NCBI GenBank assembly: GCA_963718915.1
Contig: CAVRAI010000001.1
Coordinates: 210,001-242,000, forward strand
Length of the DNA stretch: 32,000 nt
Reading direction: 5' to 3'
From: an uncultured Chloroflexia bacterium
GTDB lineage: Bacteria; Chloroflexota; Ktedonobacteria; Ktedonobacterales; JADMIN01
Below are positions 1,741 to 16,815 of this stretch, piece by piece; the stretch's first letter is position 1; every line of letters starts with the position of its first letter. The notes beneath the pieces are model-generated. The model ran no database searches and was not told the DNA's origin. It was given only the letters and a program-made list of their open reading frames with translations. The position numbers and the translations under genes were made by a program.

Positions 1741-2517
1741 CTACCGTGTCCAGAAGCCCTGGGGGTCGCACTCGCGGATGATGCGTAGCTCGTCGGCGGT
1801 GGGTGGCGGCGTCTCGTGGGCGTCGGGGGCTACGCGCAAGTCCCAGCCGGTGTTCGCGCGCACCTGCTCCGCGCTGCTGCCGGGATGCCACGAGCGTAGC
1901 TCCATCTCGTGCGTATCGGCGGTGAAGCCGAGCACCGCCAGCGTCGTAATCACCGCTGCTGGGCCGCCACGCGGCAGCCCCACGCGCGCCCGCCAGTCGC
2001 CGCCATCGCCGTAGCCGGGGCTGGTGATGTAGCTGACGTGTTCGGGAAAGCGCTTCTTCTCGTGCGCCAGGATGATCGCCAGCCGCCCCGCCAGCGAGGC
2101 GATATCCGCGCCGCCACCGCTGCCGGGTAGCTTCACCGCCGGATGCGCGCGGTCGCCGATATATGACGTGTTGAGGTTGCCGAAGCGGTCTACCTCGGCG
2201 CCGCCGACGAAGCCCAGGTTGGCGAATCCCTGCGCTAGCAGGCCCATCAGCGCGCCCGTGCGGGTCGCCCACTCAGCCCCGGCGATATTCGGCGCGTCGC
2301 CCATCGTCAGCAGCAACTCGCTGGAAGGCGCGTCGCGCACCAGGCCGTTCTCGAAGAGGCCGATGGCGCTCGGCGCGTGGGTGCGCTTGGCCAGCGCGAA
2401 CGCCAGCAGCGGCAGCCGCATCCCTACGAAGACGACCTCGCCATTGTGAATCTCGCGGGCGGCGCAGACCACCATCAGCTCCTGCGGCGTATAGTCAGGC
2501 GTCATACTCTGCGACAT
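1741..2517 (-). CDS. CoA-transferase subunit B (glutaconate / 3-oxoacid CoA-transferase beta family)
   Basis: 258-aa ORF containing EVDRFGNLNTSYIGD and KLPGSGGGADIASLA, typical of family I CoA-transferase beta subunits. It lies directly downstream of the subunit A gene on the same strand. Confidence 0.9.
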   Translation of the reverse strand: MSQSMTPDYTPQELMVVCAAREIHNGEVVFVGMRLPLLAFALAKRTHAPSAIGLFENGLVRDAPSSELLLTMGDAPNIAGAEWATRTGALMGLLAQGFANLGFVGGAEVDRFGNLNTSYIGDRAHPAVKLPGSGGGADIASLAGRLAIILAHEKKRFPEHVSYITSPGYGDGGDWRARVGLPRGGPAAVITTLAVLGFTADTHEMELRSWHPGSSAEQVRANTGWDLRVAPDAHETPPPTADELRIIRECDPQGFWTR

Positions 2518-2568
2518 TGCTACATCTCCTGCATAGGAAGTCGTGTACGGACCACCCTGGCCTTACGG

Positions 2569-2591
2569 CCCCTCCCCTTTTAGGGGAGGGG
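2569..2591. repeat. G/C hairpin (cccctcccc-tttta-ggggagggg) in the intercistronic spacer between the two CoA-transferase genes
   Basis: Perfect 9-bp inverted repeat at 2569-2577 / 2583-2591, followed by gtagggggagagg. Same sequence style as the hairpin at 17520-17542. Confidence 0.6.
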
Positions 2592-2609
2592 GTAGGGGGA
2601 GAGGTCTGC

Positions 2610-3527
2610 CTACACCCCGTAATCCACCGGAGCGGCCAGCAGCGGCGTGCGGATCGCCAGCGCCTGCCAGCGTTCAGCCCCCAGCCGCTCCAGATAGGCG
2701 GCGCGGTCGGCCACGTCGAGCACCTGCTCTCGCAGCCATGAGGCGAAGCCCTCAGGCGTGCGGCTGCGCTCGTGATACTCGGCGAAGTAGGCGTGGTCGC
2801 GATTGTAGTAGCCCTGCACCGGCGAGGGATGAGCGCCGCCGGGCGCATGGACGACCGCAAGCGTCTTCTCGCCGGGAGCCAGCACGCGGTTGGGGTCGCT
2901 CAAAATGACCTCGGCCGGGACGATCTCTTCGGCGGTATAGATGACGCCGTGGGACGCCAGCGCCGCCTCCTCGCAGATGCCCAGGCTCCCCCAGGCATGC
3001 GCGCGCCCGGCAGCATCCGCCCGCTGCACGTGGATGATCGCCACGTCGGGCCGTAGCGCCGGAACCAGCAGCGTCGGCGCGCCATCCAGCGGCGAATCGT
3101 GCGGGCGCATCGTCGGATGGTCGCGGGCGATATCGCTGCCCAGCAGTGACCGTATCGGGATGTAGGGGACGCCGAGCGCGCCCGCCAGCAGCGCCATCGC
3201 GATGCTGTAGTTGCTGTGATCCTCGACGGTGATGGGGTGTGGCAGACCCTTCTCGGTGGCTCGGCGGTAGTTGTAGCCCAGTCCCTCGCTGACATTGCCT
3301 ACCCAGGCGGCGGTGACCTTCGTGACGCAGCCCGCGCCGAGCAGCTCATCGAAGAGGATATCGGAGATGGGGCCGATGAGCGTCAGATCGCGCCGCTGCT
3401 GGCGGATGATCTCGTGTCCGGCGGCGAAGGGGATCAGTGGCTCCAGCGCCAACCCCATCGCCACGCTGCTGCCGTCGGGCACGAACCGCTCGATGGCTTC
3501 CCGCATCGTCATCAGCTTATCGCTCAT
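2610..3527 (-). CDS. CoA-transferase subunit A (family I, GctA-like)
   Basis: 305-aa ORF (MREAIERFVPDGSSVAMG..., GVPYIPIRSLLGSDI, DVAIIHVQRADAAG) resembling CoA-transferase alpha subunits. It is paired with the subunit B gene. Confidence 0.9.
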   Translation of the reverse strand: MSDKLMTMREAIERFVPDGSSVAMGLALEPLIPFAAGHEIIRQQRRDLTLIGPISDILFDELLGAGCVTKVTAAWVGNVSEGLGYNYRRATEKGLPHPITVEDHSNYSIAMALLAGALGVPYIPIRSLLGSDIARDHPTMRPHDSPLDGAPTLLVPALRPDVAIIHVQRADAAGRAHAWGSLGICEEAALASHGVIYTAEEIVPAEVILSDPNRVLAPGEKTLAVVHAPGGAHPSPVQGYYNRDHAYFAEYHERSRTPEGFASWLREQVLDVADRAAYLERLGAERWQALAIRTPLLAAPVDYGV

Positions 3528-4467
3528 CGTCCGTCTCGTCCCTTCGCCGCTGTAAGTGCCGATGCAACAATTCCCAGCGCATCTGGGGATCGCCGTGTCG
3601 TATCAGGTCGTTGGTGAGCTGCGGCCCCGTCATCCACTGCTCCAGCAGGCCGCAGACGCAAAATCCCAGGCGCTCATAGAGATGCTGCCCCTCTGGTGTA
3701 GCCGTGAGTGTGGCGCAGGTGAAGCCCGCCACCTGGGCCTCGCGGAGCGCCAGCAGCAGCAGATTGCCCGCGATGCCGCGCCGCCGAGCATCGTGCATGG
3801 TCGCCACGTGATAGACGCCGATAGACTCGCCCAATGGCAGCGTCGCGACGGTGGCAACGGCCTGATGCCTCCAGTGCGCCAAATAGAGCGTGAACGCCGG
3901 ATTCTCGCTCGTCCAGCGCGACATTGGGAACGGCGGCGCGTCGAAGACCCGGCTGATGATATGCAGCGCGTCGGCCTGGTCGCCGTCCGAGGCGGTTCGA
4001 CGATAGCTGACTCCCGGCGGCGCCTGTGGATAGCTGACGTCCCACTCCCGCAGGTCAAGGTACATCATCGTCGCGCCGCCCCAGGAACGCATGCCGACAT
4101 CATAGAGGTGCTCGCGCAGGCCTGTGGGCGCGTCGTCGTAGGTGAGCCACCACTGGAACGGCAGCCCGTAGTAGCGAAATGGCTCGATGGCCTCTTCAAT
4201 CGCGTCGGCGGTGGCTGGCTCAGGCGAGCGATAGCGCATCACGATGTTCATCAGCGTCTCGGCGACGCCCGGCGTCAGCACCCGGAGCATGGTGGGCGTA
4301 TCGTCAACCAGCGCATATGGCTGGGAGGTAAGCGATCCCAGCGATGCCCAGGCGGCGCACCAGTTCGCCTCGACGGCGCGCGCCATCCGCAGCCGCCGCA
4401 CGTCAGGCTCGTCGTCATCGGTCGCGTCGTAGTTTCGCGGTGGCTGGGCCATCTCCGAGTGGTTCAT
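3517..4467 (-). CDS. GNAT family N-acetyltransferase
   Basis: 316-aa ORF with an acetyl-CoA binding motif (RRRGIAGNLLLLALREAQVAGF...LYERLGF). The RBS GGGAGG lies upstream of the ATG at 4467. Its 3' end overlaps the CoA-transferase A start by 11 nt. Confidence 0.75.
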   Translation of the reverse strand: MNHSEMAQPPRNYDATDDDEPDVRRLRMARAVEANWCAAWASLGSLTSQPYALVDDTPTMLRVLTPGVAETLMNIVMRYRSPEPATADAIEEAIEPFRYYGLPFQWWLTYDDAPTGLREHLYDVGMRSWGGATMMYLDLREWDVSYPQAPPGVSYRRTASDGDQADALHIISRVFDAPPFPMSRWTSENPAFTLYLAHWRHQAVATVATLPLGESIGVYHVATMHDARRRGIAGNLLLLALREAQVAGFTCATLTATPEGQHLYERLGFCVCGLLEQWMTGPQLTNDLIRHGDPQMRWELLHRHLQRRRDETDDER

Positions 4468-4552
4468 CCCTGTAAAACCTCCCGCCGCTACTGTCAGTAT
4501 CTAGTCCAAGTGTAGCACGCCATCGCCAGAGCTAGAGTCCGGGTTGGTGGGT

Positions 4553-5143
4553 CTATGATTGATTACGCCGCCTGAATTGTCTTCTGGTCTTCGAATGCTT
4601 TGGCTCTGCTCGAAACTGAACCTCATGGTAGTTGCGTATGAGACGTACCAATTCCTCTGCTCGAAGCGAGAGGGTTCCCAAATTGATGTCAAGTTCAATC
4701 GGCTGTTGATCTACATCTGTGAGGGCGTCGCGAGGTTTGAGCATGAATGAGAGCGTGAGAAAGGTAGCGCGCGTAAACAGACTGGTGTCTCTTTTCGCCG
4801 CAAAGGCAGAGATGAGGGCAACATCGGCCCAATAGATGGTGCGAGTGGGGAGTGGAAAAGGGTGGTAAACCAGCCGGGATTCGCTCAATTGCAACATCGG
4901 AATCGGCGTAACAGTCCAGTACAGGCCAAACAATACGAAAACCGCGCAAATCAGCAATACAACGATGAACAGTATTGTTTTGGTAGGCTCCTGATACTCC
5001 CACGGCGTGGCTGTGATAACTGGCGTGGGCCAGGCGAAATAAGCGAGCAGGTCGATTACTACCCCGCCAGCGAAGAGTATCGCCGCCAGAAATGGCTTCC
5101 ATCGTGTGGCATATAAGTTAACCGTTGGTGAAACAATGGCCAT
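4553..5143 (-). CDS. Small membrane protein: two TM helices followed by a PH-like soluble domain
   Basis: I place the start at the internal ATG 5143 (MAIVSPTVNLY...). The longer 5368 start would overlap the divergent HD gene. TM segments are FLAAILFAGGVVIDLLAYF and ILFIVVLLICAVFVLFGLYW. They are followed by PMLQLSESRLVYHPFPLPTRTIYWADVALIS..., the TM-TM-PH layout of bacterial PH (YdbS/STM3941-like) proteins. Low-GC patch (29/60 G+C in 4561-4620). Confidence 0.6.
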   Translation of the reverse strand: MAIVSPTVNLYATRWKPFLAAILFAGGVVIDLLAYFAWPTPVITATPWEYQEPTKTILFIVVLLICAVFVLFGLYWTVTPIPMLQLSESRLVYHPFPLPTRTIYWADVALISAFAAKRDTSLFTRATFLTLSFMLKPRDALTDVDQQPIELDINLGTLSLRAEELVRLIRNYHEVQFRAEPKHSKTRRQFRRRNQS

Positions 5144-5287
5144 GATAGATCTCGCTTCGCCCAGATTCAGCGTGTTTAGCAAACATTGTAGCATGCGAGC
5201 GGGCAGCGTGAGCGCAATAGCGGAATTGTCCAGCAATCGCGCAAACAGTCGCCCAGTGGGGCATCGTTGTACGGTATACTGACGAGT

Positions 5288-6730
5288 ATGACGACACCAC
5301 GCCCAGCACGCCGACGGGTAACTCAGCCCACCACAGATGCGGCGTTGGAAACAGCCGACGCCGGACACGCGACCCTCTGGGACGCCGCGCCGGTCAACGC
5401 GCCTGCCCTGCCGGATGACGCGCCGCGTACCATCGTGCGCGACAGCCTCTACGACACCATCCCCCTCGGCACGCTGGAGCTTGACCTGATCGGCACGCCC
5501 GAATTCGTCCGCTTACAGGGTATTAAGCAGCTTGGCTTCTGCTACCGTGTCTGGCCGGGCGCAACGCATACCCGCTTCGAGCATAGCCTCGGTGTCTACT
5601 ATCTGATGCTGCGCGGATTGCGCGCGCTCTGGGCGCAGGACTATGCCCGCGAGCGACTGCACGCCAGCGAGACTGACCTGCGCACAATACTCGCCGCCGC
5701 GCTGCTGCATGATATCGGCCACTACCCCTTCTCGCACGCCATCGAGGAGCTTGGCTATCCCATCGAGCCACACGAGCGGATTGGGCGGCGCATCATCGAA
5801 CAGGGCGCGGTGGCCGAGGCGCTCACCAGACACGAACTCTCGCCCCAGCGCGTCGCCGACGTGATCGACCCGCCGCGCGACCGCCCGTTGCCGCCAACCG
5901 ACATGATTCTGACGCGGTTGCTCAGCGGCCCGCTCGACGTGGATAAGCTCGACTACCTGCCGCGTGACGCGCGTGGCTGCAATGTGCCGTATGGTGGCGT
6001 CGACCTGACGCGGTTGCTCGGCTCGATCCGTCTGCTGGAGACGCCGCAGGGGCCGCGGCTCGGCGTCAGCAGCAAGGGCATCAGCCCGCTCAACTCGCTG
6101 CTCCACGCCCGCCAGGAGATGTTCGACAACGTCTACTGGCACCACACCAACCGCGCGATGATGGCGATGCTGCTACGGGCGGTGCAGGAGGCGCAGCTTG
6201 CCGGGGCAATCGCGCCCGATGACCTGGCCGGGCACGACGACGCCTCGCTGCTGGCCTATCTCTCCGGCGAGCGCATGCCAGCGGGCACGCGCGATCTGGT
6301 GGGCGCGCTCAAACAGCGCCAGCCCTATAAGGTGCTGCTGGAGGTCAGTTCGCGCGCGGGCCGTGTCTATAGCCAGCTCGACGCGCTCTTCTGGGATCAG
6401 GGCAAGCGGCGGCGGGTGGAACTGGCCCTGGCGGAGACGCTGGCGGTCGCGCTGGAAATTCCGGTCTCACCGCACGATGTCTTGATCGATATCCCCAAGC
6501 CGGAGAAGTGGGAGATGGATGTGCTGGTGCGCTTCGCCCATCCACCCGTCGGCATGTCGTCACTAATGACCTGGACCGAGGCGACGGGCCAGCGTCCGGG
6601 CGATCTGGGCATCTACGAGCAGCACCAGCGTCGCATCCGCATCGTCGCGCGCCAGCCCGTGCGTGACGCAGCCGACGATCTCGCCGAGGAGCTACTGCTG
6701 CCGGTCATCGAGCGCATCCCCACAATCTAG
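5288..6730 (+). CDS. HD-domain dNTP triphosphohydrolase-like protein (SAMHD1 / EF1143 / COG1078 type)
   Basis: Motifs RFEHSLGVYYL, LLHDIGHYPFSHAIE and DVDKLDYLPRDARGCNVPYG are diagnostic of the SAMHD1-like HD phosphohydrolase family. The track ORF starts at TTG 5267; I prefer ATG 5288. Confidence 0.85.
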   Translation: MTTPRPARRRVTQPTTDAALETADAGHATLWDAAPVNAPALPDDAPRTIVRDSLYDTIPLGTLELDLIGTPEFVRLQGIKQLGFCYRVWPGATHTRFEHSLGVYYLMLRGLRALWAQDYARERLHASETDLRTILAAALLHDIGHYPFSHAIEELGYPIEPHERIGRRIIEQGAVAEALTRHELSPQRVADVIDPPRDRPLPPTDMILTRLLSGPLDVDKLDYLPRDARGCNVPYGGVDLTRLLGSIRLLETPQGPRLGVSSKGISPLNSLLHARQEMFDNVYWHHTNRAMMAMLLRAVQEAQLAGAIAPDDLAGHDDASLLAYLSGERMPAGTRDLVGALKQRQPYKVLLEVSSRAGRVYSQLDALFWDQGKRRRVELALAETLAVALEIPVSPHDVLIDIPKPEKWEMDVLVRFAHPPVGMSSLMTWTEATGQRPGDLGIYEQHQRRIRIVARQPVRDAADDLAEELLLPVIERIPTI

Positions 6731-6752
6731 CGGCGAATCGAGGGAGTCATAC

Positions 6753-7838
6753 ATGGGAGCCCGTGCAAACTACGTTCTCATCGAAGATGGCGCAATTTCG
6801 ATCTACTATTCCCACTGGGGCGCGATGAGCGTTCCCGCAGTTGTCATTGATGGCCCCGACGCGACGATTGCATACATCCGGGAACTGGGGCCTGACGCTG
6901 TATTGATGGAGGATAACTGGGCGGAAGGTGGAATCCTGCTTGACGTCGACCGACGCGCGTTGCTCTTTTTCGGTGGCGAGAACATCATGTTCTCTCCTCC
7001 CTGGCAGCGGATATTCCTCCGCATGATGCGATTTGTCTGGCAGGGCTGGTCTGTTGCATGGGCAGGACGCGAAATTTTCGATATCGCATCGTATCCTGGT
7101 GTTGCGGATTCCCTTGAAATCAATCCTTCCAGTCTTATCATGTCCGTTGAACCTGAAACCTATCAACCATATTCTGAGGCGAAGATCCGTAATCCGCACG
7201 AAAATCCGTGGGTTTATACCGTCATCACCGTCACCTGGGAAGATGGGCGAGTCAGTGACTATACCTTCGATTCCGCGCTCGACGGTTATCTGCTGTTTGG
7301 ACCAAACCTGCTCGATGACTTGCGCGAGCGCGAACCCGATGAGCTGCCATGTGAAGAAAGCAGTGGGGAGATAATTTACTTCGATGCCCCAGACCAGGGC
7401 CTACGTGAGGGCGCATATATCGATACGGGCGCGCGAGCAATGTGGATCATGCACGACAAACCGGTGTATTCCGTAAAGCCGGAACGCATCGCGCAGATAT
7501 GGCCTGGTTGGAGTGTGAACGAACACTTTGAGGGTCTTGGCCGCCAGGTTGTGCTGTCTGGCCGTAATCCGTCCCTAGTTGCCGCTCCTTATGAACAGGT
7601 GGCACTCGAATTGATCGGCGATTTGATGACAGGCCATAGGGACGATAACGACTCAGTTTCGCGTTTGATCGCACAGGCGTTGGCCGACCGACCGACTGAG
7701 CAATCAACGCAGGATAACGAAATCGCGTATCCCACGCCTTTGCCTCCTCTTCTCCCAGCAGCAGAGCGACGCGCCCATCTCATTGCCCTGCTCCAGCAGG
7801 CGTTGCAGGATGACGCAGAAGCTAGAGCCAACAAGTGA
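6753..7838 (+). CDS. Hypothetical protein (361 aa), no family recognised
   Basis: The ATG at 6753 is preceded by GAGGGAG (6740-6746) and lies 22 nt after the HD gene stop. The long ORF is in a lower-GC patch (26/60 G+C in 7081-7140). The track start at 6663 would overlap the HD gene. Confidence 0.65.
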   Translation: MGARANYVLIEDGAISIYYSHWGAMSVPAVVIDGPDATIAYIRELGPDAVLMEDNWAEGGILLDVDRRALLFFGGENIMFSPPWQRIFLRMMRFVWQGWSVAWAGREIFDIASYPGVADSLEINPSSLIMSVEPETYQPYSEAKIRNPHENPWVYTVITVTWEDGRVSDYTFDSALDGYLLFGPNLLDDLREREPDELPCEESSGEIIYFDAPDQGLREGAYIDTGARAMWIMHDKPVYSVKPERIAQIWPGWSVNEHFEGLGRQVVLSGRNPSLVAAPYEQVALELIGDLMTGHRDDNDSVSRLIAQALADRPTEQSTQDNEIAYPTPLPPLLPAAERRAHLIALLQQALQDDAEARANK

Positions 7839-7993
7839 GAAGTATGAAGCGCCTCACAAATTCTCGCATTGCAGAGTGAGAACTCAGAAACTCCGCCCGT
7901 ATATTCTGTGGAAGGCTACCAGCCGATGGTGAATCTACTCGCCCCGGCTAGCTGTGTCGCTGGAGCGGATATGAGCGCGAGGGAGAGTGCGCT

Positions 7994-8197
7994 ATGGCTA
8001 AATCCCGAAGGAAACGAAGCGCGCTAAGGGCGCTGGTGGTGGCGCTGCTCTTCATCGCCGTCACCGTGGCGCTGATCGTCTTCATCCCCCGCGCCATCGA
8101 CTCCTCACATGCCACGCAGATACCCACGCCGGGACAGGTGATTCTGCCGCCGACCGCCCCAGCGGCGACCGCAGTGGCGACGGCCACGAACAAGTAA
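7994..8197 (+). CDS. Small single-pass membrane protein (67 aa)
   Basis: The ATG is preceded by GAGGGAGAG. The N-terminus is basic (KSRRKRSALR) and is followed by the TM segment ALVVALLFIAVTVALIVFI. Confidence 0.45.
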   Translation: MAKSRRKRSALRALVVALLFIAVTVALIVFIPRAIDSSHATQIPTPGQVILPPTAPAATAVATATNK

Positions 8198-8213
8198 CGA
8201 GGAGGCGGAGACG

Positions 8214-9092
8214 ATGAATCAACGGTATCGCACGCAACGCTCTCCTCGAACATGGGTAGGTGGCATCGTCGGCGGACTGATGCTTGCTTGCCGCGCTCGC
8301 GCTGCTGGCCGCGTGCGGCGGCTATAGCTCGCCATCAGCCATCTATACGCCGCATCCCGGAGGCACGGCCATTCCACGGCCGGTACCGGGCCAGCGGCCT
8401 ACGCCTATCTCTACTCGCGGATTGATTATCCATTGCAGTTGGCGGTCAACGCGGGAGGCGACGTCACACTGACCCTCTCGCCGCAGCAGAATCTGCTGAT
8501 CGCGACGCCGGGCGCGGGTTCGGGCGTGGGCACGGTGGGCGAGCCGATTCCGCTGCCGACGCGGCTGAACGATTATAACGACATCGGCGCCTCGGTCGAT
8601 ACGGAGTCGTCAGGCAACAGCCCCGTCGTCTGGCAGCTTGTCAGCGCGCCGCGCCAGTCGCTGCTCTCGCCGGGCGGTCCAGGCACAGACCGCGCGTATC
8701 TGGATGCTGTGCACTTCACCTGGCATGTGGAGGCCGTCGCGCCGGGACAGAATCTGGTGCGCATCATTCTCCATCTCTACTACATTTATCTTGACGGCAG
8801 CGAGCATGATGGCACGATCGAGGTCTCGTCGTTGCCGACGCCAATCGTCGCGGTTCAGTCCACCATCGCCAATACGACGCTGCCCACCTGGCTCCCGTCG
8901 TGGCTAACTGACCAACTCACCACATGGCGGATACCGCTAGCGGGCTTGAGCGGGCTGGCGGGCCTGCTGGGTGTGATACGTTTCCTGTGGGATATGTTCC
9001 AGAATGCGCGGGACGCCAGAGAAGCGGCGCAGGGCGCGGCCAAAGCGGCGGTGGCGATCCGCACGCGCGTCAACCAGCGACGGCAACGATAA
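8214..9092 (+). pseudogene. Lipoprotein-like / C-terminally anchored protein interrupted by two compensating frameshifts (or two sequencing errors)
   Basis: The ATG at 8214 (RBS GGAGGCGGAG) gives MNQRYRTQRSPRTWVGGIVGGLM and then stops at 8325-8327. The +1 frame from 8284 reads LLAALALLAACGGYSSPSAIYTPHPGGTAIPRPVPG, a lipobox LLAAC, with G/C-rich third codon positions. From about 8391 the G/C-rich third positions return to the original frame (PAAYAYLYSRIDYPLQLAVNAGGDVTLTLSP...), which runs to 9092 and ends with a TM helix (LAGLSGLAGLLGVIRFLW). Confidence 0.45.
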
Positions 9093-10270: not shown

Positions 10271-10945
10271 ATGACTCAGGAATCGCCTACGAGCAACAGG
10301 GAAGGCGCGCTTGAATCGGAGAACAGCGGTATCAGGGCTACGGGCGCTCCAGCGCACATCGTCGCCGGGAAGCGGACGCTGCCACCGGGAAGCAGCGACA
10401 AATACCCGCTGCCCGGTCGCTGGCCGCAGCCTGAAGCGTGGCCGGAATCCGACGTCGCGCCCAAACCTGAAGCGGAACCACAGCCGCCCGTAGAGCAACC
10501 GGTCATGATTGAGATCGAGATCGGGTCGCGCCATTCCGCCGTGAAGCGCTCCAACTGGTTACAGGCGCCGGATTACTGGCTGGCGGATCATCAATCGGTG
10601 CCTCGTCCGCGGACACGGTCACTGCCGCGCCCCAAGCGCTTTGTACGCGTGTCGCGCGCGCGCAGTTCCATGCTGCTGTTCGTCGCCGTGGTGGGCATTG
10701 CTATCGTCGGCGCGGGCATGGTGTACGCAGGCCATCTTACCTACGACTATTTCAATACGCCCCTCGCGCTGCCGACGACCCATCCCGCGACCGCGACTGC
10801 GACCGATCTTCCGGCAACCGCCACACCAACCGATATCCCGGTGACTGGTACCGCGACCGATGGCTCCGATGCTCAGGGAACCGTCACGCCTGATATCACG
10901 CCCGATACGACGCCCGACGTCACTCCCGTTATCCCAACACCCTGA
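10271..10945 (+). CDS. Single-pass membrane protein with a Thr/Pro/Asp-rich repetitive C-terminus
   Basis: The ATG at 10271 follows GGAAGGAG. The TM segment is MLLFVAVVGIAIVGAGMVYAG. The C-terminal tail is low complexity (TATATDLPATATPTDIPVTGTATDG...TPDITPDTTPDVTPVIPTP). Confidence 0.6.
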   Translation: MTQESPTSNREGALESENSGIRATGAPAHIVAGKRTLPPGSSDKYPLPGRWPQPEAWPESDVAPKPEAEPQPPVEQPVMIEIEIGSRHSAVKRSNWLQAPDYWLADHQSVPRPRTRSLPRPKRFVRVSRARSSMLLFVAVVGIAIVGAGMVYAGHLTYDYFNTPLALPTTHPATATATDLPATATPTDIPVTGTATDGSDAQGTVTPDITPDTTPDVTPVIPTP

Positions 10946-11306
10946 CCGTCGGGAGCGCTCCGCAACGCCCAGGTACCAGCTACCTGCCCATCTGGCGAGA
11001 TACCGGCAGGCTGCATGGTATCATAAACGTTCACAGTATCAGTAGTCAGTGGCAGACAGCTGCGGCCATGTATGCCAAATTTGGCGAATATGATACACTT
11101 GAGCAATAAAGCTTAGGATCTGTGATGAACTCAACGCGCATGACCGGAGAGCGCCTGGAATATGTGACGGGAAGAGCGACAAACCAGCGCAAAAGGCTCG
11201 GATAGCACAACCGGGCGATACTATTAGCGGGTTGTCGCCTCATCGGTCTGCCAATCTGCCAATTCTAGCGCATGCAACACCATACAACACAAGGCTTTGA
11301 AGGCAG

Positions 11307-11342
11307 CAGGCACGCCAGGCACGCCAGGCACGCCAGGCACGC
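11307..11342. repeat. Tandem repeat (caggcacgc) x4 immediately upstream of tnpB
   Basis: Four perfect 9-bp units at 11307-11342. The array ends 12 bp before the tnpB ATG (11355). Confidence 0.85.
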
Positions 11343-11354
11343 AGGGAGACAGCG

Positions 11355-12563
11355 ATGCGGCTGGTTGAGCGACACGTCATCAAGCGGATTGACCGGCGCT
11401 TCAACGCGATTGACCGCGCGGCCTTCGCCTCGAAAAACCTGTACAACAAGGCGCTCTACGCCTCCCGGCAGGCGTTCTTCCAGGACGGCTCGTTCCCAAG
11501 CTACCTCGCGCTCTATCGTCAGATGAAGAGCGAGCCGGAGTATGCGGCCTTGCCCCGCAAGGTCGCCCAATGGGTGCTCAAGCAGGTGTGCGCGGCCTGG
11601 GACAGCTACCGTGAGGCGCTCAGAACCTGGGAGACGGATCCCTCGCAGTTCTTGAATCAGCCACGCATCCCCCGCTACAAGCACAAGGAGCAGGGGCGCA
11701 ACCTGTTGGTCTACACCACTCAGGCGCTGAGTCGCCCTGCGTTACGCAACCAGGTGATTTGTCCTTCGATGCTGGACATCACTGTCCAGACTCAGCAGTC
11801 TAATATCCAGCAAGTGCGCATCATTCCACGTAGCGGCTTCTACGTGGTTGAAGTTGTCTATGCGCGAGAACCTACCCCGGCAGCCGTCAATCCCACATTG
11901 CATGCTGGCGTAGACATTGGATTGAACAATCTGGCCATGCTAACTTCAGACAAGCCGGGCTTTGTCCCGCGCGTCGTCAACGGGCGACCAGTGAAGTCCA
12001 TCAACCAGTTCTACAACAAGCGACGCGCGGCGTTACAAAGCCAGTTAGGGGGCGTGGGTACCAGCCGACGCTTGGAGTGCATCACGACGAAACGCACGCG
12101 CCGCATAGAGTGGTACCTGCACACCGCCTCACACCGCCTCATCGAGTTGCTGGTGACGGAGGGGATTGGAACCCTCTGCATCGGTAAGAATCCCGGTTGG
12201 AAACAGGGAGCAACTATGGGCCGACGGGGTAACCAGAACTTCGTGAGCATCCCCCATGCGCGCTTCGTCGCGATGCTGGCCTATAAAGCCGAGCTGGTGG
12301 GCATCCAGGTGTGCATCACGGAGGAGAGCTACACCAGCAAAGCGAGTTTTCTCGATGCGGACCTCCTGCCAGTCTATGGCACGGCGAATGTCTCGGTTTT
12401 CAGTGGGCGGCGTGTCAAACGTGGGTTGTATCGCGCAGCGGATGGGCGGCACATCAACGCGGATGTGAACGGCTCCTACAACATCATTCGCAAAGTAGCT
12501 CCTAATGCCTTCGCGCAAGGGAGTAGAGGGTGCGTAGTTCACCCTATACGGCTCGCCGTATAA
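11355..12563 (+). CDS. tnpB: IS200/IS605-family TnpB (OrfB) RNA-guided endonuclease homologue, zinc-ribbon-less subtype
   Basis: 402 aa. RuvC-I is HAGVDIGLNNLAMLT. The C-terminal part is ITEESYTSKASFLD...RVKRGLYRAADGRHINADVNGSYNIIRK (RuvC-III NADVNG). The middle part, LCIGKNPGWKQG...GNQNFVSIPHARFVAMLAYKAELVGIQV, is typical of the TnpB branch common in cyanobacteria and Chloroflexi. No tnpA gene is adjacent. Confidence 0.9.
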   Translation: MRLVERHVIKRIDRRFNAIDRAAFASKNLYNKALYASRQAFFQDGSFPSYLALYRQMKSEPEYAALPRKVAQWVLKQVCAAWDSYREALRTWETDPSQFLNQPRIPRYKHKEQGRNLLVYTTQALSRPALRNQVICPSMLDITVQTQQSNIQQVRIIPRSGFYVVEVVYAREPTPAAVNPTLHAGVDIGLNNLAMLTSDKPGFVPRVVNGRPVKSINQFYNKRRAALQSQLGGVGTSRRLECITTKRTRRIEWYLHTASHRLIELLVTEGIGTLCIGKNPGWKQGATMGRRGNQNFVSIPHARFVAMLAYKAELVGIQVCITEESYTSKASFLDADLLPVYGTANVSVFSGRRVKRGLYRAADGRHINADVNGSYNIIRKVAPNAFAQGSRGCVVHPIRLAV

Positions 12564-12590
12564 ACTGGGTCTATGGTTGTCCATAGGTCA
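11355..12590 (+). mobile_element. Solo-tnpB insertion sequence (IS1341-like); minimal extent only, true left and right ends not determined
   Basis: Contains tnpB plus a hairpin, ctatgg-ttgt-ccatag (12571-12586), 8 nt after the stop. No second copy is in the window to define the ends. No Y1 (HUH) or serine TnpA ORF lies in the 409 bp upstream. Confidence 0.4.
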
Positions 12591-12635
12591 GGAACTATAC
12601 TGTCAGCAGATACAATCTGGCGAGGAGCAATTCAG

Positions 12636-13346
12636 ATGGCAGCATTGGGCATCGGCAAGATCGTCGGTTCGGAATCACATGTGCGCTACACTTGCCAGAT
12701 ATTCGGCCCCGGCGAGGTCGCTACGCCGCCGGATCCCTCCGCGCACGCTTTTGGCGGCTTCGTCCGCCTGCCACTGCGGACGGCGCTGGCCGCTCCGGAT
12801 ATCGCCGCGCTCGAACCGCGCCCAACCGCCGCGATACGTAGCGACGCGCTGGTACCCGCGCCAGCGCAGCCGCTCTGGGCGGTGGGCTTCATCTACGACA
12901 CGATACTGGTCAATCCCGCCTTTGGCACGCTGGGGCCGCGTCTCTCCAACGACGAGCAGCTTACCCTCTTCTCGCCGGACTACCTGGCGGAGCGCGCCGT
13001 CCTTGTCTCGATCCTGGTGCTGGGCACGATGAGCGGTGAGGGCGCGCCAGCGGGTAGAGTGACGCATGGGGTGCCCGCGCTTGCGCCTGATCTGGGCGCG
13101 GTGGTCGAGCCGCTCACCGAGACGCAGCTGCGCGCCTTTCACACGTTTGCCGATACGTCGCAGTCGCGTCCGTACCTGCACCTAGGCTACCTGCCCCATA
13201 CCGTCGCGCAGAACCACCCGCTGCTGCCGCTGGCAATGTTGCGGACGGTCGAGCGGCTGGAGGCGCTGCTTCCGGAGAACGCCTCGTTGCTGGCAATCGT
13301 CAAGCGCAATCTGGCCTGGCGGCTCAAAGTGCTGGCGGCAGGGTAG
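12636..13346 (+). CDS. Hypothetical protein; N-terminal two thirds resemble a stand-alone HAS-barrel (HerA N-terminal-like) domain
   Basis: The ATG at 12636 is preceded by GAGGAG (12622-12627). MAALGIGKIVGSESHVRYTCQIF..FGGFVRLPL...LWAVGFIYDTILVNP...RAVLVSILVLGTMSGEG...GVPALAPDLGAVVEPLTETQLRAFH follows the strand pattern of HerA N-terminal barrels (iGxVvg...f.f, G.fV.i, a.v.vlG, P.pG..V....el). This is an inference, not a verified match. The gene ends 41 nt before the HerA-like gene. Confidence 0.55.
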   Translation: MAALGIGKIVGSESHVRYTCQIFGPGEVATPPDPSAHAFGGFVRLPLRTALAAPDIAALEPRPTAAIRSDALVPAPAQPLWAVGFIYDTILVNPAFGTLGPRLSNDEQLTLFSPDYLAERAVLVSILVLGTMSGEGAPAGRVTHGVPALAPDLGAVVEPLTETQLRAFHTFADTSQSRPYLHLGYLPHTVAQNHPLLPLAMLRTVERLEALLPENASLLAIVKRNLAWRLKVLAAG

Positions 13347-13387
13347 GTTACGCGGAACACAAGAGAAACGCGAGGCGGAAAATCACT

Positions 13388-15145
13388 ATGAGTGGCGCGC
13401 AATCACCCCAAACATCCCGCCCGGTTGGCATCACCAAAGGCCCCGGCGAAGCAATCCACGAATACACGCTGATCTCACGCGATGAACAGCGGCTGCTCAA
13501 AAACGGCGAATACGTCTATTACGAACTGGATGAGACCGCCAGCGGCTCGCCTGGCGCAACGGGCGCAAATGGCGCGCATGCCGCCACGCCGCGCCGCGTG
13601 CTGGGACGCATCCTGCGACGGGCGCCGGTGCAGCCTTTCCCCGACACCTTCCTCTCGGAACCTGAGGTATCGCCCTCCCAGGTTGCCGCGCTCGTCGGCT
13701 ATGATATGCGCGCCAGCGATCTCTTCGAGCTTCACGTCGGCATCATGGGCTATTACGATGAGACGTTAGGCTCCTTCGTCAACCCCTGGATTCCGCCCAG
13801 CTCCGGCACGCCCATCTATCTGGCCGAGGACGCCTGGCTCGCCACCGTGCTCTCGCGCAAGCAGGGCGGTCAGGTTGGCAGCGCCATCGTCGGCTCGCTG
13901 CTGACACGCCCGCCAACCGCCGTGCCGGTGGTGCTGGATGTCAAAGAACTGGTAAGCACTCACCTCGCCATCATCGCCAGCACCGGCGCGGGCAAGAGCT
14001 ATCTGGCCAGCGTTATCATCGAGGAGATGATGCGCCCCTACAACCGCGCCGCCGTCCTCATCATCGATCCCCACGGCGAATACAACACCTTGCAGGAGAT
14101 CGCGAACGACGAGGAGTTCCGTGCCCCGGAGCCAGCCAGCCCCGCGACGCGGCGCCAGCCACGCTATGAGGCGCGCACGCGCGTCTATCTGCACGACCAG
14201 GTGAAGGTGCGCATGAACACGCTGACGCTCGGCGACCTGCGCTACCTGCTGCCCAACATGACCGACAAGCAGCACCACTTCCTCAGCCGGGCGTTCGAGG
14301 CGCTACGGGCCGAGAAGAAGGGGCAGCCATGGGGCGCTGCCGACCTCAAGCGCCATGTGAGCAACGTCGGCAAGTCCGCGAACGAGGATAGCGGCGACGA
14401 TAGCGGCAACAGCACCATCGCCGCGCTGCACTGGAAGATCGACGAGCGGCTGGGCGACAACACGATGGTCTTCGACCAGTTCCAGCATCTCAATCTGAGC
14501 GAGGTGCTCCAGCCGGGGCAATGCACCGTCCTCCAGCTCAATGAGATCGACGAGCGCGACCAGCAGGTGATCGTCGCCACGCTGCTCCGACGTATCAACC
14601 AGGCGCGGATGGACACCGAGAAGGGCAAGGTACAGGCGAGCGACGAGCGCTTTCTGCCGTATCCCGTCTTCATCCTGCTGGAGGAGGCGCACCACTTCGC
14701 GCCGCATGACGGCGAGGCGATCACGACGGGCATTCTCAAGCAGGTGCTGGCCGAGGGACGCAAGTTTGGCATCGGCGTCGGGCTGATTAGCCAGCGTCCC
14801 GGCAAGCTGGACGCTGACGTGCTGAGCCAGTGCCTGACGCAGTGCATCATGCGCATCGTCAACGAGGTGGATCAGAAGAGCGTCGCCAGCGCCGTCGAAG
14901 GCGTGGGGCATGATCTACTACAGAACCTGCCTGCCCTCTCGAAGGGGCAAGCCATCATCGCGGGCAGCGCCATCAATACGCCAGTCATCTGCCGCGTGCG
15001 CGAGCGGATTACGCCGCACGGTGGCGAGAGCAAAGACGCCCCAGCGGAGTGGCAGGCGCATTTCGGCGTGGATGCAGTGGCGGGGCGCGCCCGCGATGAG
15101 GCGCTCCCCCGGCGCAACAATCGCCCATTCAACATCATGAAATAG
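13388..15145 (+). CDS. HerA-like / DUF87 hexameric ATPase (FtsK-HerA superfamily)
   Basis: 585 aa. N-terminal barrel region (GITKGPGEAIHEYTLIS..NGEYVYYELDE..VLGRILRRAPV). Walker A is HLAIIASTGAGKSYLASV and Walker B is VFILLEEAHHFAP. GIGVGLISQRPGKLDADVLSQC is also present, and the end is GQAIIAGSAINTPVICRVRERITPHGG, typical of HerA/COG0433. Confidence 0.85.
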   Translation: MSGAQSPQTSRPVGITKGPGEAIHEYTLISRDEQRLLKNGEYVYYELDETASGSPGATGANGAHAATPRRVLGRILRRAPVQPFPDTFLSEPEVSPSQVAALVGYDMRASDLFELHVGIMGYYDETLGSFVNPWIPPSSGTPIYLAEDAWLATVLSRKQGGQVGSAIVGSLLTRPPTAVPVVLDVKELVSTHLAIIASTGAGKSYLASVIIEEMMRPYNRAAVLIIDPHGEYNTLQEIANDEEFRAPEPASPATRRQPRYEARTRVYLHDQVKVRMNTLTLGDLRYLLPNMTDKQHHFLSRAFEALRAEKKGQPWGAADLKRHVSNVGKSANEDSGDDSGNSTIAALHWKIDERLGDNTMVFDQFQHLNLSEVLQPGQCTVLQLNEIDERDQQVIVATLLRRINQARMDTEKGKVQASDERFLPYPVFILLEEAHHFAPHDGEAITTGILKQVLAEGRKFGIGVGLISQRPGKLDADVLSQCLTQCIMRIVNEVDQKSVASAVEGVGHDLLQNLPALSKGQAIIAGSAINTPVICRVRERITPHGGESKDAPAEWQAHFGVDAVAGRARDEALPRRNNRPFNIMK

Positions 15146-15149
15146 CGAA

Positions 15150-15371
15150 GCAGGCTGGCGACTAAAGTCGCGCCTGAACAGCCTGCGGCCACGAAGTCCG
15201 CCTGCGCGGACTGCAGGGCGCGCGTTTCTCGCTTTGCGGCCCACGTTGCTGCCTTGCGCGCCCAGGCGACGCCCCACCGTGCATATGGTGGATAGGATGT
15301 TTTTGCAACCCGCGCAGGCGGGTTTTGTGGCGGAGCGCAAGCGAGGCCCTTTAGGCGCGGTTTTAACCGCC
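15150..15371 (-). repeat. Dispersed multi-hairpin repeat, copy A (inverted relative to copy B at 21927-22126)
   Basis: The reverse complement aligns with 21927-22126. One end module is about 85% identical by hand alignment (ggcggttRaaaccgcgcctRaagggcctcgct...tccgccacRaaaccYgcctgcgcRggttgca). The other is about 80% identical (ctgcagtccgcgcaggcggacttYgYgg...cgccag). The centres diverge. Hairpins: gcggtt/aaccgc, aacccgc/gcgggtt, agtccgc/gcggact. Confidence 0.8.
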
Positions 15372-15415
15372 AGCCGTTCTGGCGTGCCACTGTAACACCT
15401 GAATTGGCATCAGGC

Positions 15416-16324
15416 TTAGTCTTGCCTCTGGCCAAAGGCGACGTAGAACGGCAGAATACCACGGCCCTGGCGCTGCGCGAACTCCTGTTGCGCGCGTGTA
15501 TAGAGCGCGTCGTACCGTTCCGCGGGCATGATGTTCTGGGCGACGACACCCGCGCGGAGCGCCTTGCCAACCGCCAGACAGTCGGTCGCGGAGGCGCGCC
15601 CAATCCGCCCACCCCAGTCGCCCATCGGGAAGTTGAGCACCCGCTGCTGCACGTTGGCCAGTCCACCATTGCTCAGCATCTGCCCAATGTACCTGCCAAT
15701 GGTGAAGTCGACATTGCGGGTATTCAGGAAGTCAATCCAGCTCTGCCAGAGGCCCATGTAGCCGGGGCCGCCATCCTGCGCCGAGCCGCATTCGGCCAGC
15801 TCCACCCACCCGCCGCGCCGGGTCACGCGCACCAGTTCCTGGATGACGCCCGGCCAGCGGTCGCGCGGAATCGCGGTGATAAGGAGGCGCTGGTGGACAA
15901 AATCGAAGCTCTGGTCGGCGAAGGGCAGCCCTTCGAGGATGTTTCCGGCGGAGAAGATATAGTTCGCTGGGCGCACGTCAAGCCCCTGCCCCAGGCTACT
16001 CGCATCATCGGGCGGTGGCACCAGATCGAGCCCGACGACGCGCGCACCGGGGAAGAGTGTCGCCATCTCCATTGCCCAGCGCCCCGAGCCACCACCCACA
16101 TCCAGGATATCGGATGGTTGATTCACTGGCGCCGCATAGTTGCCCCGCTGGCCCGTACGCAGGAGGAAATGCTGGAAGTCCAGCCGGTTGATCTCGCCCA
16201 TATCTTTGGGCAGTGGGTAGGGCATGGCGGCGAGGTGCTGGCGGCCGCCAAACAGGCGGAATCGCTGGTCGGGGACATTCTCAAGCACGACATCATGTCT
16301 CTGGCGGCGAAACGGCCACATCAA
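15416..16324 (-). CDS. Class I SAM-dependent methyltransferase
   Basis: 302 aa. Motif I is ILDVGGGSGRWAMEMA, followed by VVGLDL, then FDFVHQRLL and LVRVTRRGGWVEL (post-I to III motifs). Confidence 0.85.
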   Translation of the reverse strand: MMWPFRRQRHDVVLENVPDQRFRLFGGRQHLAAMPYPLPKDMGEINRLDFQHFLLRTGQRGNYAAPVNQPSDILDVGGGSGRWAMEMATLFPGARVVGLDLVPPPDDASSLGQGLDVRPANYIFSAGNILEGLPFADQSFDFVHQRLLITAIPRDRWPGVIQELVRVTRRGGWVELAECGSAQDGGPGYMGLWQSWIDFLNTRNVDFTIGRYIGQMLSNGGLANVQQRVLNFPMGDWGGRIGRASATDCLAVGKALRAGVVAQNIMPAERYDALYTRAQQEFAQRQGRGILPFYVAFGQRQD

Positions 16325-16351
16325 CGATACTCCCTTTCATTGCACGACAGG

Positions 16352-16417
16352 CACAGCACAGACACAGCACAGACACAGCACAGACACAGCACAGACACAG
16401 CACAGACACAGCACAGG
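16352..16417. repeat. Tandem repeat (cacagcacaga) x6
   Basis: Five perfect 11-bp units at 16352-16406 plus a sixth with one change (cacagcacagg). The array lies between the stop of the 68-aa ORF (16454) and the methyltransferase start (16324). Confidence 0.9.
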
Positions 16418-16453
16418 CAGCCATGCGCCAGTGCGAAGCTGGCAGAGTTCGCG

Positions 16454-16660: not shown

Positions 16661-16760
16661 GATCTCGTTTTCCTCCTTGCATCCTTCTCCTTCATGGGGG
16701 GATACATCGGTCTGGAAACAACTCCTTTTATCGTGTGGTTGATTTTAGCACAGCCCCGCC

Positions 16761-16815
16761 CACGAGGCAACCACGAGGCAACCACGAGGCAACCACGAGG
16801 CAACCACGAGGCAAC
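16761..16815. repeat. Tandem repeat (cacgaggcaac) x5
   Basis: Five perfect 11-bp units at 16761-16815, in the divergent intergenic region between the 68-aa ORF (minus) and the cupin gene (plus). Confidence 0.9.

Follow-up and report, generated by a model that had tools for sequence, protein, structure and literature searches.

A two-gene cassette in a 32-kb stretch of genomic DNA from an uncultured Ktedonobacterales bacterium of the phylum Chloroflexota (the whole stretch is called the window below) encodes a HerA-family ATPase and, just upstream of it, a 236-aa partner that belongs to the Pfam family DUF8166 (PF26500). On balance, we lean towards seeing DUF8166 as a HerA-binding accessory subunit of a NurA-HerA-type machine. 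In fact, most members of the shorter form of this family are encoded between nurA and herA, and we therefore regard the window cassette as a split or reduced NurA-HerA-type system rather than as a separate kind. HerA-NurA (S. solfataricus, T. kodakarensis, D. radiodurans) is a DNA-end-processing complex that is usually encoded with Mre11-Rad50, and it serves as the main model for archaeal DNA-end resection. HerA rings also power several anti-phage systems whose structures were solved recently. The cassette described here probably works like the HerA-NurA family and descends from it. What is new is the three-gene nurA-X-herA architecture, of which the window holds a two-gene remnant, and DUF8166 is probably an undescribed extra subunit of the known NurA-HerA machine.

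The argument starts from gene order. We surveyed the neighbourhoods of 97 full-length DUF8166 members, a set made of 80 metagenome loci and of loci found by exact look-up, with our own hidden Markov models (HMMs) for NurA, HerA, Mre11 and Rad50. Because many of these loci come from related organisms, the counts that follow are not independent events. DUF8166 is directly followed on its 3' side by herA in 81 of the 85 informative loci; the two genes are thus strongly syntenic in related genomes, as the original prediction for this stretch required. By length the family comprises a short form of ~192-205 aa and a long, Ktedonobacteria-like form of at least 215 aa. An immediately downstream herA is common to both (42/45 short-form and 39/40 long-form loci), whereas an upstream nurA accompanies the pair in 30 of the 34 short-form loci that are informative on this point, but in only 1 of 32 such long-form loci. 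The commonest spacing between a short-form DUF8166 gene and herA is a 4-nt stop/start overlap, and 24 of the 30 short-form NurA genes end at most 150 nt from the DUF8166 start.

Short-form loci are found in Chloroflexota, probably including Anaerolineae, in an Asgard archaeon and on haloarchaeal megaplasmids, and often have the layout mre11-rad50-nurA-DUF8166-herA, with genes that overlap by 4 nt. Complete mre11-rad50-nurA-DUF8166-herA operons occur in six of the Chloroflexota loci (L008, L104, L021, L043, L071 and L097), and a Helarchaeota metagenome-assembled genome (MAG) carries nurA-DUF8166-herA. Full five-gene operons are also present on plasmids of Natrinema zhouii (NZ_CP084885.1, L100) and Halobaculum marinum (NZ_CP119991.1, L101), where RefSeq already names their products, in order, metallophosphoesterase, SMC family ATPase, "DNA double-strand break repair nuclease NurA", hypothetical protein and ATP-binding protein. 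Both megaplasmids are non-mobilizable, and a DEAD/DEAH-box helicase or phospholipase D family gene flanks the operon upstream. The occurrence of the whole module on haloarchaeal megaplasmids suggests that it was acquired horizontally.

These layouts bear on the earlier claim that the pair has no nuclease partner. The claim stands locally, as no NurA, Mre11 or Rad50 gene was found across the 32-kb window, also when our NurA HMM was run against all of its open reading frames (ORFs); it does not stand for the short-form family, with its upstream NurA. The wider DUF8166 family speaks instead for the fallback that had been offered at the time, namely that the effector lies elsewhere. In NurA-HerA end-resection systems nurA is encoded with herA. 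Since nurA is unlinked in the window, we do not count the cassette as one of them and describe it as a reduced layout, in which the DUF8166-herA core is set apart from any nuclease gene and the nuclease is either encoded elsewhere or lost.

In some loci, other genes lie between nurA and DUF8166 in operons that are otherwise intact. L079 holds there, at 2457-6932, a gene for a 1491-aa sacsin/NOV_C protein; L085 holds an OLD-family AAA_15+TOPRIM protein (4919-6772), L012 an RHH/PIN toxin-antitoxin pair (1626-2278), and in L026 and L052 the two genes are separated by 3-4 kb of inserted DNA. This junction seems to tolerate or attract defence-like insertions. In another locus, L009, on a second contig from the sample of L008, the herA gene that follows DUF8166 is split into several short ORFs (6582-8219), which makes it either a pseudogene or an assembly error.

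Within the window, the cassette itself is as first read from the sequence: two co-oriented ORFs on the + strand, spanning positions 12636 to 15145 and separated by 41 nt. A Shine-Dalgarno-like site precedes each of the two starts (Table 1). The start of the partner at 12636 agrees with the N-termini of its homologues, and an upstream ATG at 12573 does not. Both genes are real and under purifying selection: compared with three relatives, the partner has a ratio of nonsynonymous to synonymous substitution rates (dN/dS) of 0.11-0.17, and HerA one of 0.04-0.07.

The ATPase matches the DUF87/HerA central domain (Pfam PF01935) over residues 168-403, with an E-value of 6.2e-37 and 128.3 bits against a cutoff of 23.2. 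Its best NCBIfam match is to the repair-type model helicase_HerA (NF040819, 'DNA double-strand break repair helicase HerA'), but the score of 201 bits (E 2e-59) is far below the equivalog cutoff of 970. By this NCBI criterion it is a member of the HerA family without being an equivalog of the repair HerA of archaea. The NCBIfam anti-phage HerA models score 101 and 86 bits on the same protein, compared with the 201 bits of the repair-type model, and HerA models of PADLOC match as well (best E 1e-46). Among solved structures, the nearest relative is T. kodakarensis HerA, from the HerA-NurA complex, which is found in the PDB with E 1e-46 from the single sequence and with E 1e-71 from a 16-sequence HerA profile. 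The GAGKS, LLEEAH and SQRP motifs, on which the original prediction of a HerA-type ATPase had been built, are all present and invariant in an alignment of 16 HerAs. The N-terminal region, residues 9-154, is conserved in NurA-linked and NurA-unlinked HerAs alike, but it goes unmatched by the Pfam HAS-barrel model, and the PDB sequence alignments begin near residue 88-106. The alpha1 region of HerA is equally conserved in NurA-linked and NurA-unlinked HerAs.

The partner is a PF26500 member: an identical database protein (P0001) has a precomputed match to this family, as do all 120 of the homologues listed, and the UniRef name is 'DUF8166 domain-containing protein'. PF26500 is an already-catalogued Pfam domain of unknown function, although the searchable literature mentions neither DUF8166 nor PF26500 and no description of the partner was found there. 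The family comprises 210 clusters at 50% identity in a library of 1.8 billion proteins; its named members come from Ktedonobacteria, other Chloroflexota, Blastocatellia, a Helarchaeota (Asgard) MAG and Haloferax, to which four haloarchaeal megaplasmids are added. Three fusion proteins (P0198, P0233 and P0244) join half of a DUF8166 domain to fragments of RapZ/isochorismatase, of an RNase D-like exonuclease and of Glu/Gln-tRNA synthetase. We treated them as assembly or gene-calling chimeras and not as Rosetta-stone evidence.

Searches with the partner against Pfam, NCBIfam, PADLOC, PHROGs and PDB sequences returned nothing meaningful, and two faint matches, to LtrA (E 0.002, below cutoff) and to SoxY (E 1.1), were discarded as noise. 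No NurA, Sir2, DUF4297 or other nuclease domain was found in it with Pfam, PADLOC, NCBIfam or PHROGs; these library scans and the predicted fold agree with the original prediction, which had seen no NurA, Sir2 or PD-(D/E)xK signature. As a NurA the partner was rejected on the lack of a PF09376 match and on the fold matches listed, which are HerA chains and not NurA. As a PD-(D/E)xK nuclease, a class with an alpha-beta-alpha restriction-endonuclease fold and PD...(D/E)xK on adjacent strands, it was rejected on spacing and predicted fold: its conserved SPDYLxE(K/R) sits in a helical insertion of the predicted barrel, and none of the 50 fold matches listed is a nuclease. This insertion is the most conserved segment of the family (residues 93-119; Table 1). 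The consensus NPxxGxxGPRLS...FxPDYLxE runs through 73 diverse DUF8166 members, with P114 and D115 nearly invariant, and an hhalign comparison aligns the segment with PFPDTFLSEPEVSPSQVAALVGY of HerA, the alpha1 region of its HAS domain.

What the partner may look like comes from structure prediction. An AlphaFold2 (AF2) model built on the 73 aligned members reaches a predicted local distance difference test (pLDDT) score of 88 and a predicted template modelling (pTM) score of 0.82; a first model, from a shallow alignment of 37 close homologues, had a pLDDT of 47 and was discarded. The model predicts a barrel whose strands 4 and 5 are separated by a helical insertion; a helical hairpin forms the C-terminus. 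One barrel loop (residues ~50-78) is poorly conserved, modelled with low confidence and variable in length, and makes up most of the surplus of the long Ktedonobacterial form. When the model was compared with the PDB by Foldseek, the best 50 matches were all HerA chains (E 3.5e-7 to 1.7e-3), over 161-241 aligned columns and at a sequence identity of 9-16%. These chains belong to HerA-NurA, Sir2-HerA, DUF4297-HerA and TdpAB complexes, to an anti-phage defence complex without a name (8xav), or to structures of HerA by itself. In the hhalign comparison, DUF8166 residues 15-168 are collinear, strand for strand, with residues 9-154 of HerA, its HAS region (E 0.0045). Because the AF2 model, the all-HerA matches and the collinear profile alignment point the same way, the reading of the partner as a HAS-like beta-barrel with a C-terminal helical hairpin is supported at the level of predicted structure, much as the original prediction of a free-standing HerA-type barrel with a helical tail had imagined. 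Viral structure models (BFVD) gave no match to the partner below E 0.1, and a viral origin was ruled out on this ground.

How could such a protein serve a HerA motor? In the solved complexes the HerA ring receives a NurA dimer on the face formed by its HAS domains (PMC12977600; PMC9960219), and in T. kodakarensis HerA it is the alpha1 helices of the HAS domain, with the loops that precede them, that contact NurA (PMC12977600). We envision that DUF8166, a non-catalytic protein built from a copy of the HAS barrel and a hairpin, would bind the HerA ring on its HAS crown or close to it, making contact through its conserved alpha1-equivalent insertion and/or through the hairpin; residues 93-119 may be the docking site. 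From this position it could adapt or regulate the coupling of the ATP-driven translocase with the nuclease on double-stranded DNA ends, acting as an adaptor ring, as a loader present at partial occupancy or as a decoy of the nuclease. Any specific DUF8166-HerA geometry merits much less confidence than the accessory-subunit reading itself.

Comparison with known systems places the cassette closest to HerA-NurA, with which it shares the nearest solved relative of its ATPase and, through the short-form pairs, the nurA-herA and mre11-rad50-nurA-herA operons in which most of them are embedded. However, the described complexes have two components (HerA6:NurA2), whereas the DUF8166 family adds a predicted HAS-like protein of 190-236 aa between nurA and herA, and in the window nurA, mre11 and rad50 are all unlinked. 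The HerA/NurA literature that we searched does not describe a third operon gene between nurA and herA. The Sir2-HerA and DUF4297-HerA systems are also two-gene cassettes of a HerA ATPase and a partner, and their HerA chains (8sub, 8j4u, 8zir and 9c1m) are among the matches of the DUF8166 model. Yet in the present pair the partner resembles HerA and not an effector, it gave no PADLOC match and no sign of a Sir2, DUF4297 or nuclease domain, and the window HerA scores lower on the anti-phage than on the repair HerA models. By sequence, then, the window cassette does not belong to either system. With the HAS barrels of HerA and of the F1-ATPase alpha/beta crown, DUF8166 would share the predicted barrel, the insertion between strands 4 and 5, the helix that follows and the collinearity with HerA HAS; in the solved HerA chains that it matches, however, the ATPase carries the barrel as its own N-terminal domain, while DUF8166 is a separate polypeptide with a hairpin tail of its own.

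A conserved HAS-like barrel with a gene of its own, placed between nurA and herA in both bacteria and archaea, would point to a layer of assembly or regulation that has gone unstudied; the protein might be an adaptor ring, might act as a decoy or might be a loading factor. The Ktedonobacterial layouts, in which the pair stands alone or is joined by a membrane protein, suggest that the core of motor plus barrel can be redeployed without a nuclease. If correct, the accessory-subunit idea would provide the first functional annotation for a Pfam DUF with hundreds of members. We see DUF8166-HerA as a useful and somewhat surprising lead for the study of HerA machines, and not as a new category of system.

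Several observations weigh against an accessory subunit of this kind. On the side of the fold, the Foldseek template modelling (TM) scores, normalised to the partner as query, are about 0.3-0.4, the similarity of DUF8166 to HAS is marginal in hhalign, with a probability of 7.7%, and the Pfam HAS-barrel sequence model gives the partner no match at E<=1. On the side of the genes, herA is missing from L013, where DUF8166 stands with nurA, a zinc-ribbon ORF and a methyltransferase, and L019 is a solo DUF8166 copy with no adjacent herA. The Blastocatellia-like loci L102 (1701-2288) and L103 (884-1471) carry DUF8166 with neither herA nor nurA nearby; the gene has a Wzt-type ABC transporter ATPase on one side and a SAM methyltransferase on the other, a misfit with the picture of a HerA partner. 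Of the 32 long-form loci that are informative, 31 showed no NurA over a distance of 7-10 kb, and in sister Ktedonobacteria herA is coupled to a small membrane protein, a hint that the pair has a different job there.

The last two points lead to the alternative that we consider doubtful, yet the first to be weighed: Ktedonobacterial DUF8166-HerA would have left end resection and become a nuclease-free pump for DNA or another substrate, possibly at the membrane, with DUF8166 as a cap or adaptor of the ring. Transfer or segregation of the chromosome or of plasmids would be possible roles for this pump; Ktedonobacteria are mycelial, spore-forming bacteria. The membrane protein, of ~121 aa and with 3-4 predicted transmembrane segments, follows herA in 17 Ktedonobacteria-like loci that lack NurA, namely those of Thermosporothrix hazakensis (L010, 12452-12811), of L018 (12717-13091) and of 15 soil loci (including L038, and within L053-L098). 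Its gene overlaps the herA stop by 4 nt in most of them, and L010 and L018 have otherwise different flanks, so that the coupling is seen in two lineages with differing surroundings. The window HerA has, in addition, weaker matches to membrane-associated DNA-transfer ATPases (CedD, E 4.5e-21; TraD and VirB4 families). The third gene that the original prediction had thought of looking for next to the pair where tnpB is absent is thus present after herA in the sister Ktedonobacteria. It has no Pfam match, and it is missing from all 20 of the short-form loci that could be checked. Against the pump stands the window clade itself (the window and L001-L006), which is without the transmembrane gene. 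The pump also sits poorly with the best matches of the window HerA, which are to repair-type HerA, and with the alpha1 region, whose equal conservation in NurA-unlinked HerAs is consistent with a retained docking partner.

The neighbourhood of the pair in the window clade is a stable one. Five close Ktedonobacterales relatives share the order pseudouridine-5'-phosphate glycosidase, 262-aa ORF, DUF8166, HerA, which in 4 of the 5 is followed by a methyltransferase on the opposite strand, and the more distant L006 retains the glycosidase, DUF8166 and HerA. NurA was not found within 7-10 kb of the pair in L001-L006, L010 or L018. A homologue search with the NurA profile is uninformative on a Ktedonobacterial NurA, and does not amount to its absence, because the best 120 matches listed were all closely related to the query, and just one of them, from Anaerolineae, has a name. 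The same profile had no match among PDB sequences and hence gives no word on the NurA subtype.

The boldest reading, which we likewise hold to be unlikely, would make DUF8166 a true structural subunit. DUF8166 would form a barrel ring of its own, or occupy positions in the HerA crown, making a three-component machine in many Chloroflexota and some archaea in place of HerA6:NurA2, and Ktedonobacterial DUF8166-HerA without NurA, in some clades tethered to the membrane protein, would be a new nuclease-free DNA-translocation complex.

Defence against phages or plasmids is more improbable still. Here the pair would be of the HerA-plus-effector type, with or without NurA, DUF8166 would be its sensor or regulator, and foreign double-stranded DNA would be degraded. 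Such a role would fit the haloarchaeal five-gene operon, which sits on megaplasmids beside a DEAD/DEAH-box helicase or phospholipase D family protein, the defence-like genes nested between nurA and DUF8166 in L085, L079 and L012, the methyltransferase after DUF8166 in L013 and the PADLOC HerA matches of the window ATPase; the T. kodakarensis study also suggests that HerA-NurA might destroy foreign double-stranded DNA (PMC12977600). However, the cassette is without an effector domain, its partner has no PADLOC or PHROGs match and no viral structural match, and the NCBIfam anti-phage HerA models score half as much as the repair model. Moreover, the Ktedonobacterales pair is slow-evolving and keeps its stable chromosomal place by the pseudouridine-5'-phosphate glycosidase gene, unlike patchy defence islands.

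It is very improbable that the barrel likeness comes from modelling error or from a resemblance common to small barrels at large, and that DUF8166 has no functional relation to the surface of the HerA ring and is, for example, a DNA-binding or regulatory protein merely co-transcribed with herA: the low TM-score (about 0.4), identity and hhalign probability, the poor first model and the members without herA would allow it, but the best 50 PDB matches include no barrel family other than HerA, an independent profile alignment follows the HAS domain strand for strand, and the linkage to herA, with its frequent 4-nt overlaps, holds in 81/85 loci.

Table 1. Positions in the window of the DUF8166-herA cassette, its motifs and the neighbouring insertion
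Feature	Position	Strand	Remarks
TnpB-only IS200/IS605-type element, 1574 bp	11022..12595		tnpB co-oriented with the cassette; missing from relatives L001-L004
Shine-Dalgarno-like GAGGAG	12622..12627	+	8 nt before the ATG at 12636; read from the sequence
DUF8166 (PF26500) protein, 236 aa	12636..13346	+	ATG start, TAG stop; ORF and translation
Predicted barrel region of the partner, residues ~6-160	12651..13115	+	AF2 strands 7-12, 17-22, 42-47, 80-92, 121-133, 142-144, 156-159
Most conserved family segment NPAFGTLGPRLSNDEQLTLFSPDYLAE, residues 93-119	12912..12992	+	insertion between predicted barrel strands 4 and 5
Predicted C-terminal helical hairpin LPLAMLRTVERLEALLPENASLLAIVKRNLAWRLKVLAA, residues 197-235	13224..13340	+	helices 197-211 and 213-235; pLDDT 95-97; conserved in the family
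Shine-Dalgarno-like GAGG	13372..13375	+	12 nt before the herA ATG; read from the sequence
HerA-family hexameric ATPase/translocase (DUF87 central domain), 585 aa	13388..15145	+	ATG start; Pfam, NCBIfam and PDB matches
Putative N-terminal HAS-domain region of HerA, residues ~9-154	13412..13849	+	conserved; collinear with the DUF8166 barrel by hhalign
Walker A, GAGKS	13985..13999	+	G200, G202, K203 and S204 invariant in the 16-sequence HerA alignment
Walker B region, LLEEAH	14675..14692	+	E432, E433, A434 and H435 invariant in the 16-sequence HerA alignment
SQRP motif (sensor/arginine region)	14789..14800	+	S468, Q469, R470 and P471 invariant in the 16-sequence HerA alignment

Upstream of the cassette, the window carries the TnpB element, a lineage-specific insertion that four close relatives (L001-L004) are without. 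Its tnpB gene (11355-12563) has OrfB_IS605 and Cas12f1-like TNB domains, and a short tandem repeat, CAGGCACGC x4, lies in the left end of the element just before tnpB (11318-11352). The right end stops 40 nt short of the start codon of DUF8166, and the insertion has therefore pushed the native upstream region of the cassette away by 1.6 kb. Transcription of the cassette may now rely on read-through from the element. A scan for promoters and terminators over 10900-15600 gave nothing above shuffle expectation, and an Rfam scan of 10900-13500 gave no match.

On the other side, the region 3' of herA is variable in the window clade, and no conserved ORF was found there: from the herA stop to the methyltransferase gene that converges on it, the spacer measures 270 nt in the window (15146-15415), 22 nt in L002 and ~2.2 kb in L003. 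Further downstream, between the methyltransferase and cupin genes, two short tandem repeats at 16330-16420 and ~16740-16800 are seen in ORF translations as HRHSTDTAQTQ x2 and PRGNHEAT x2.

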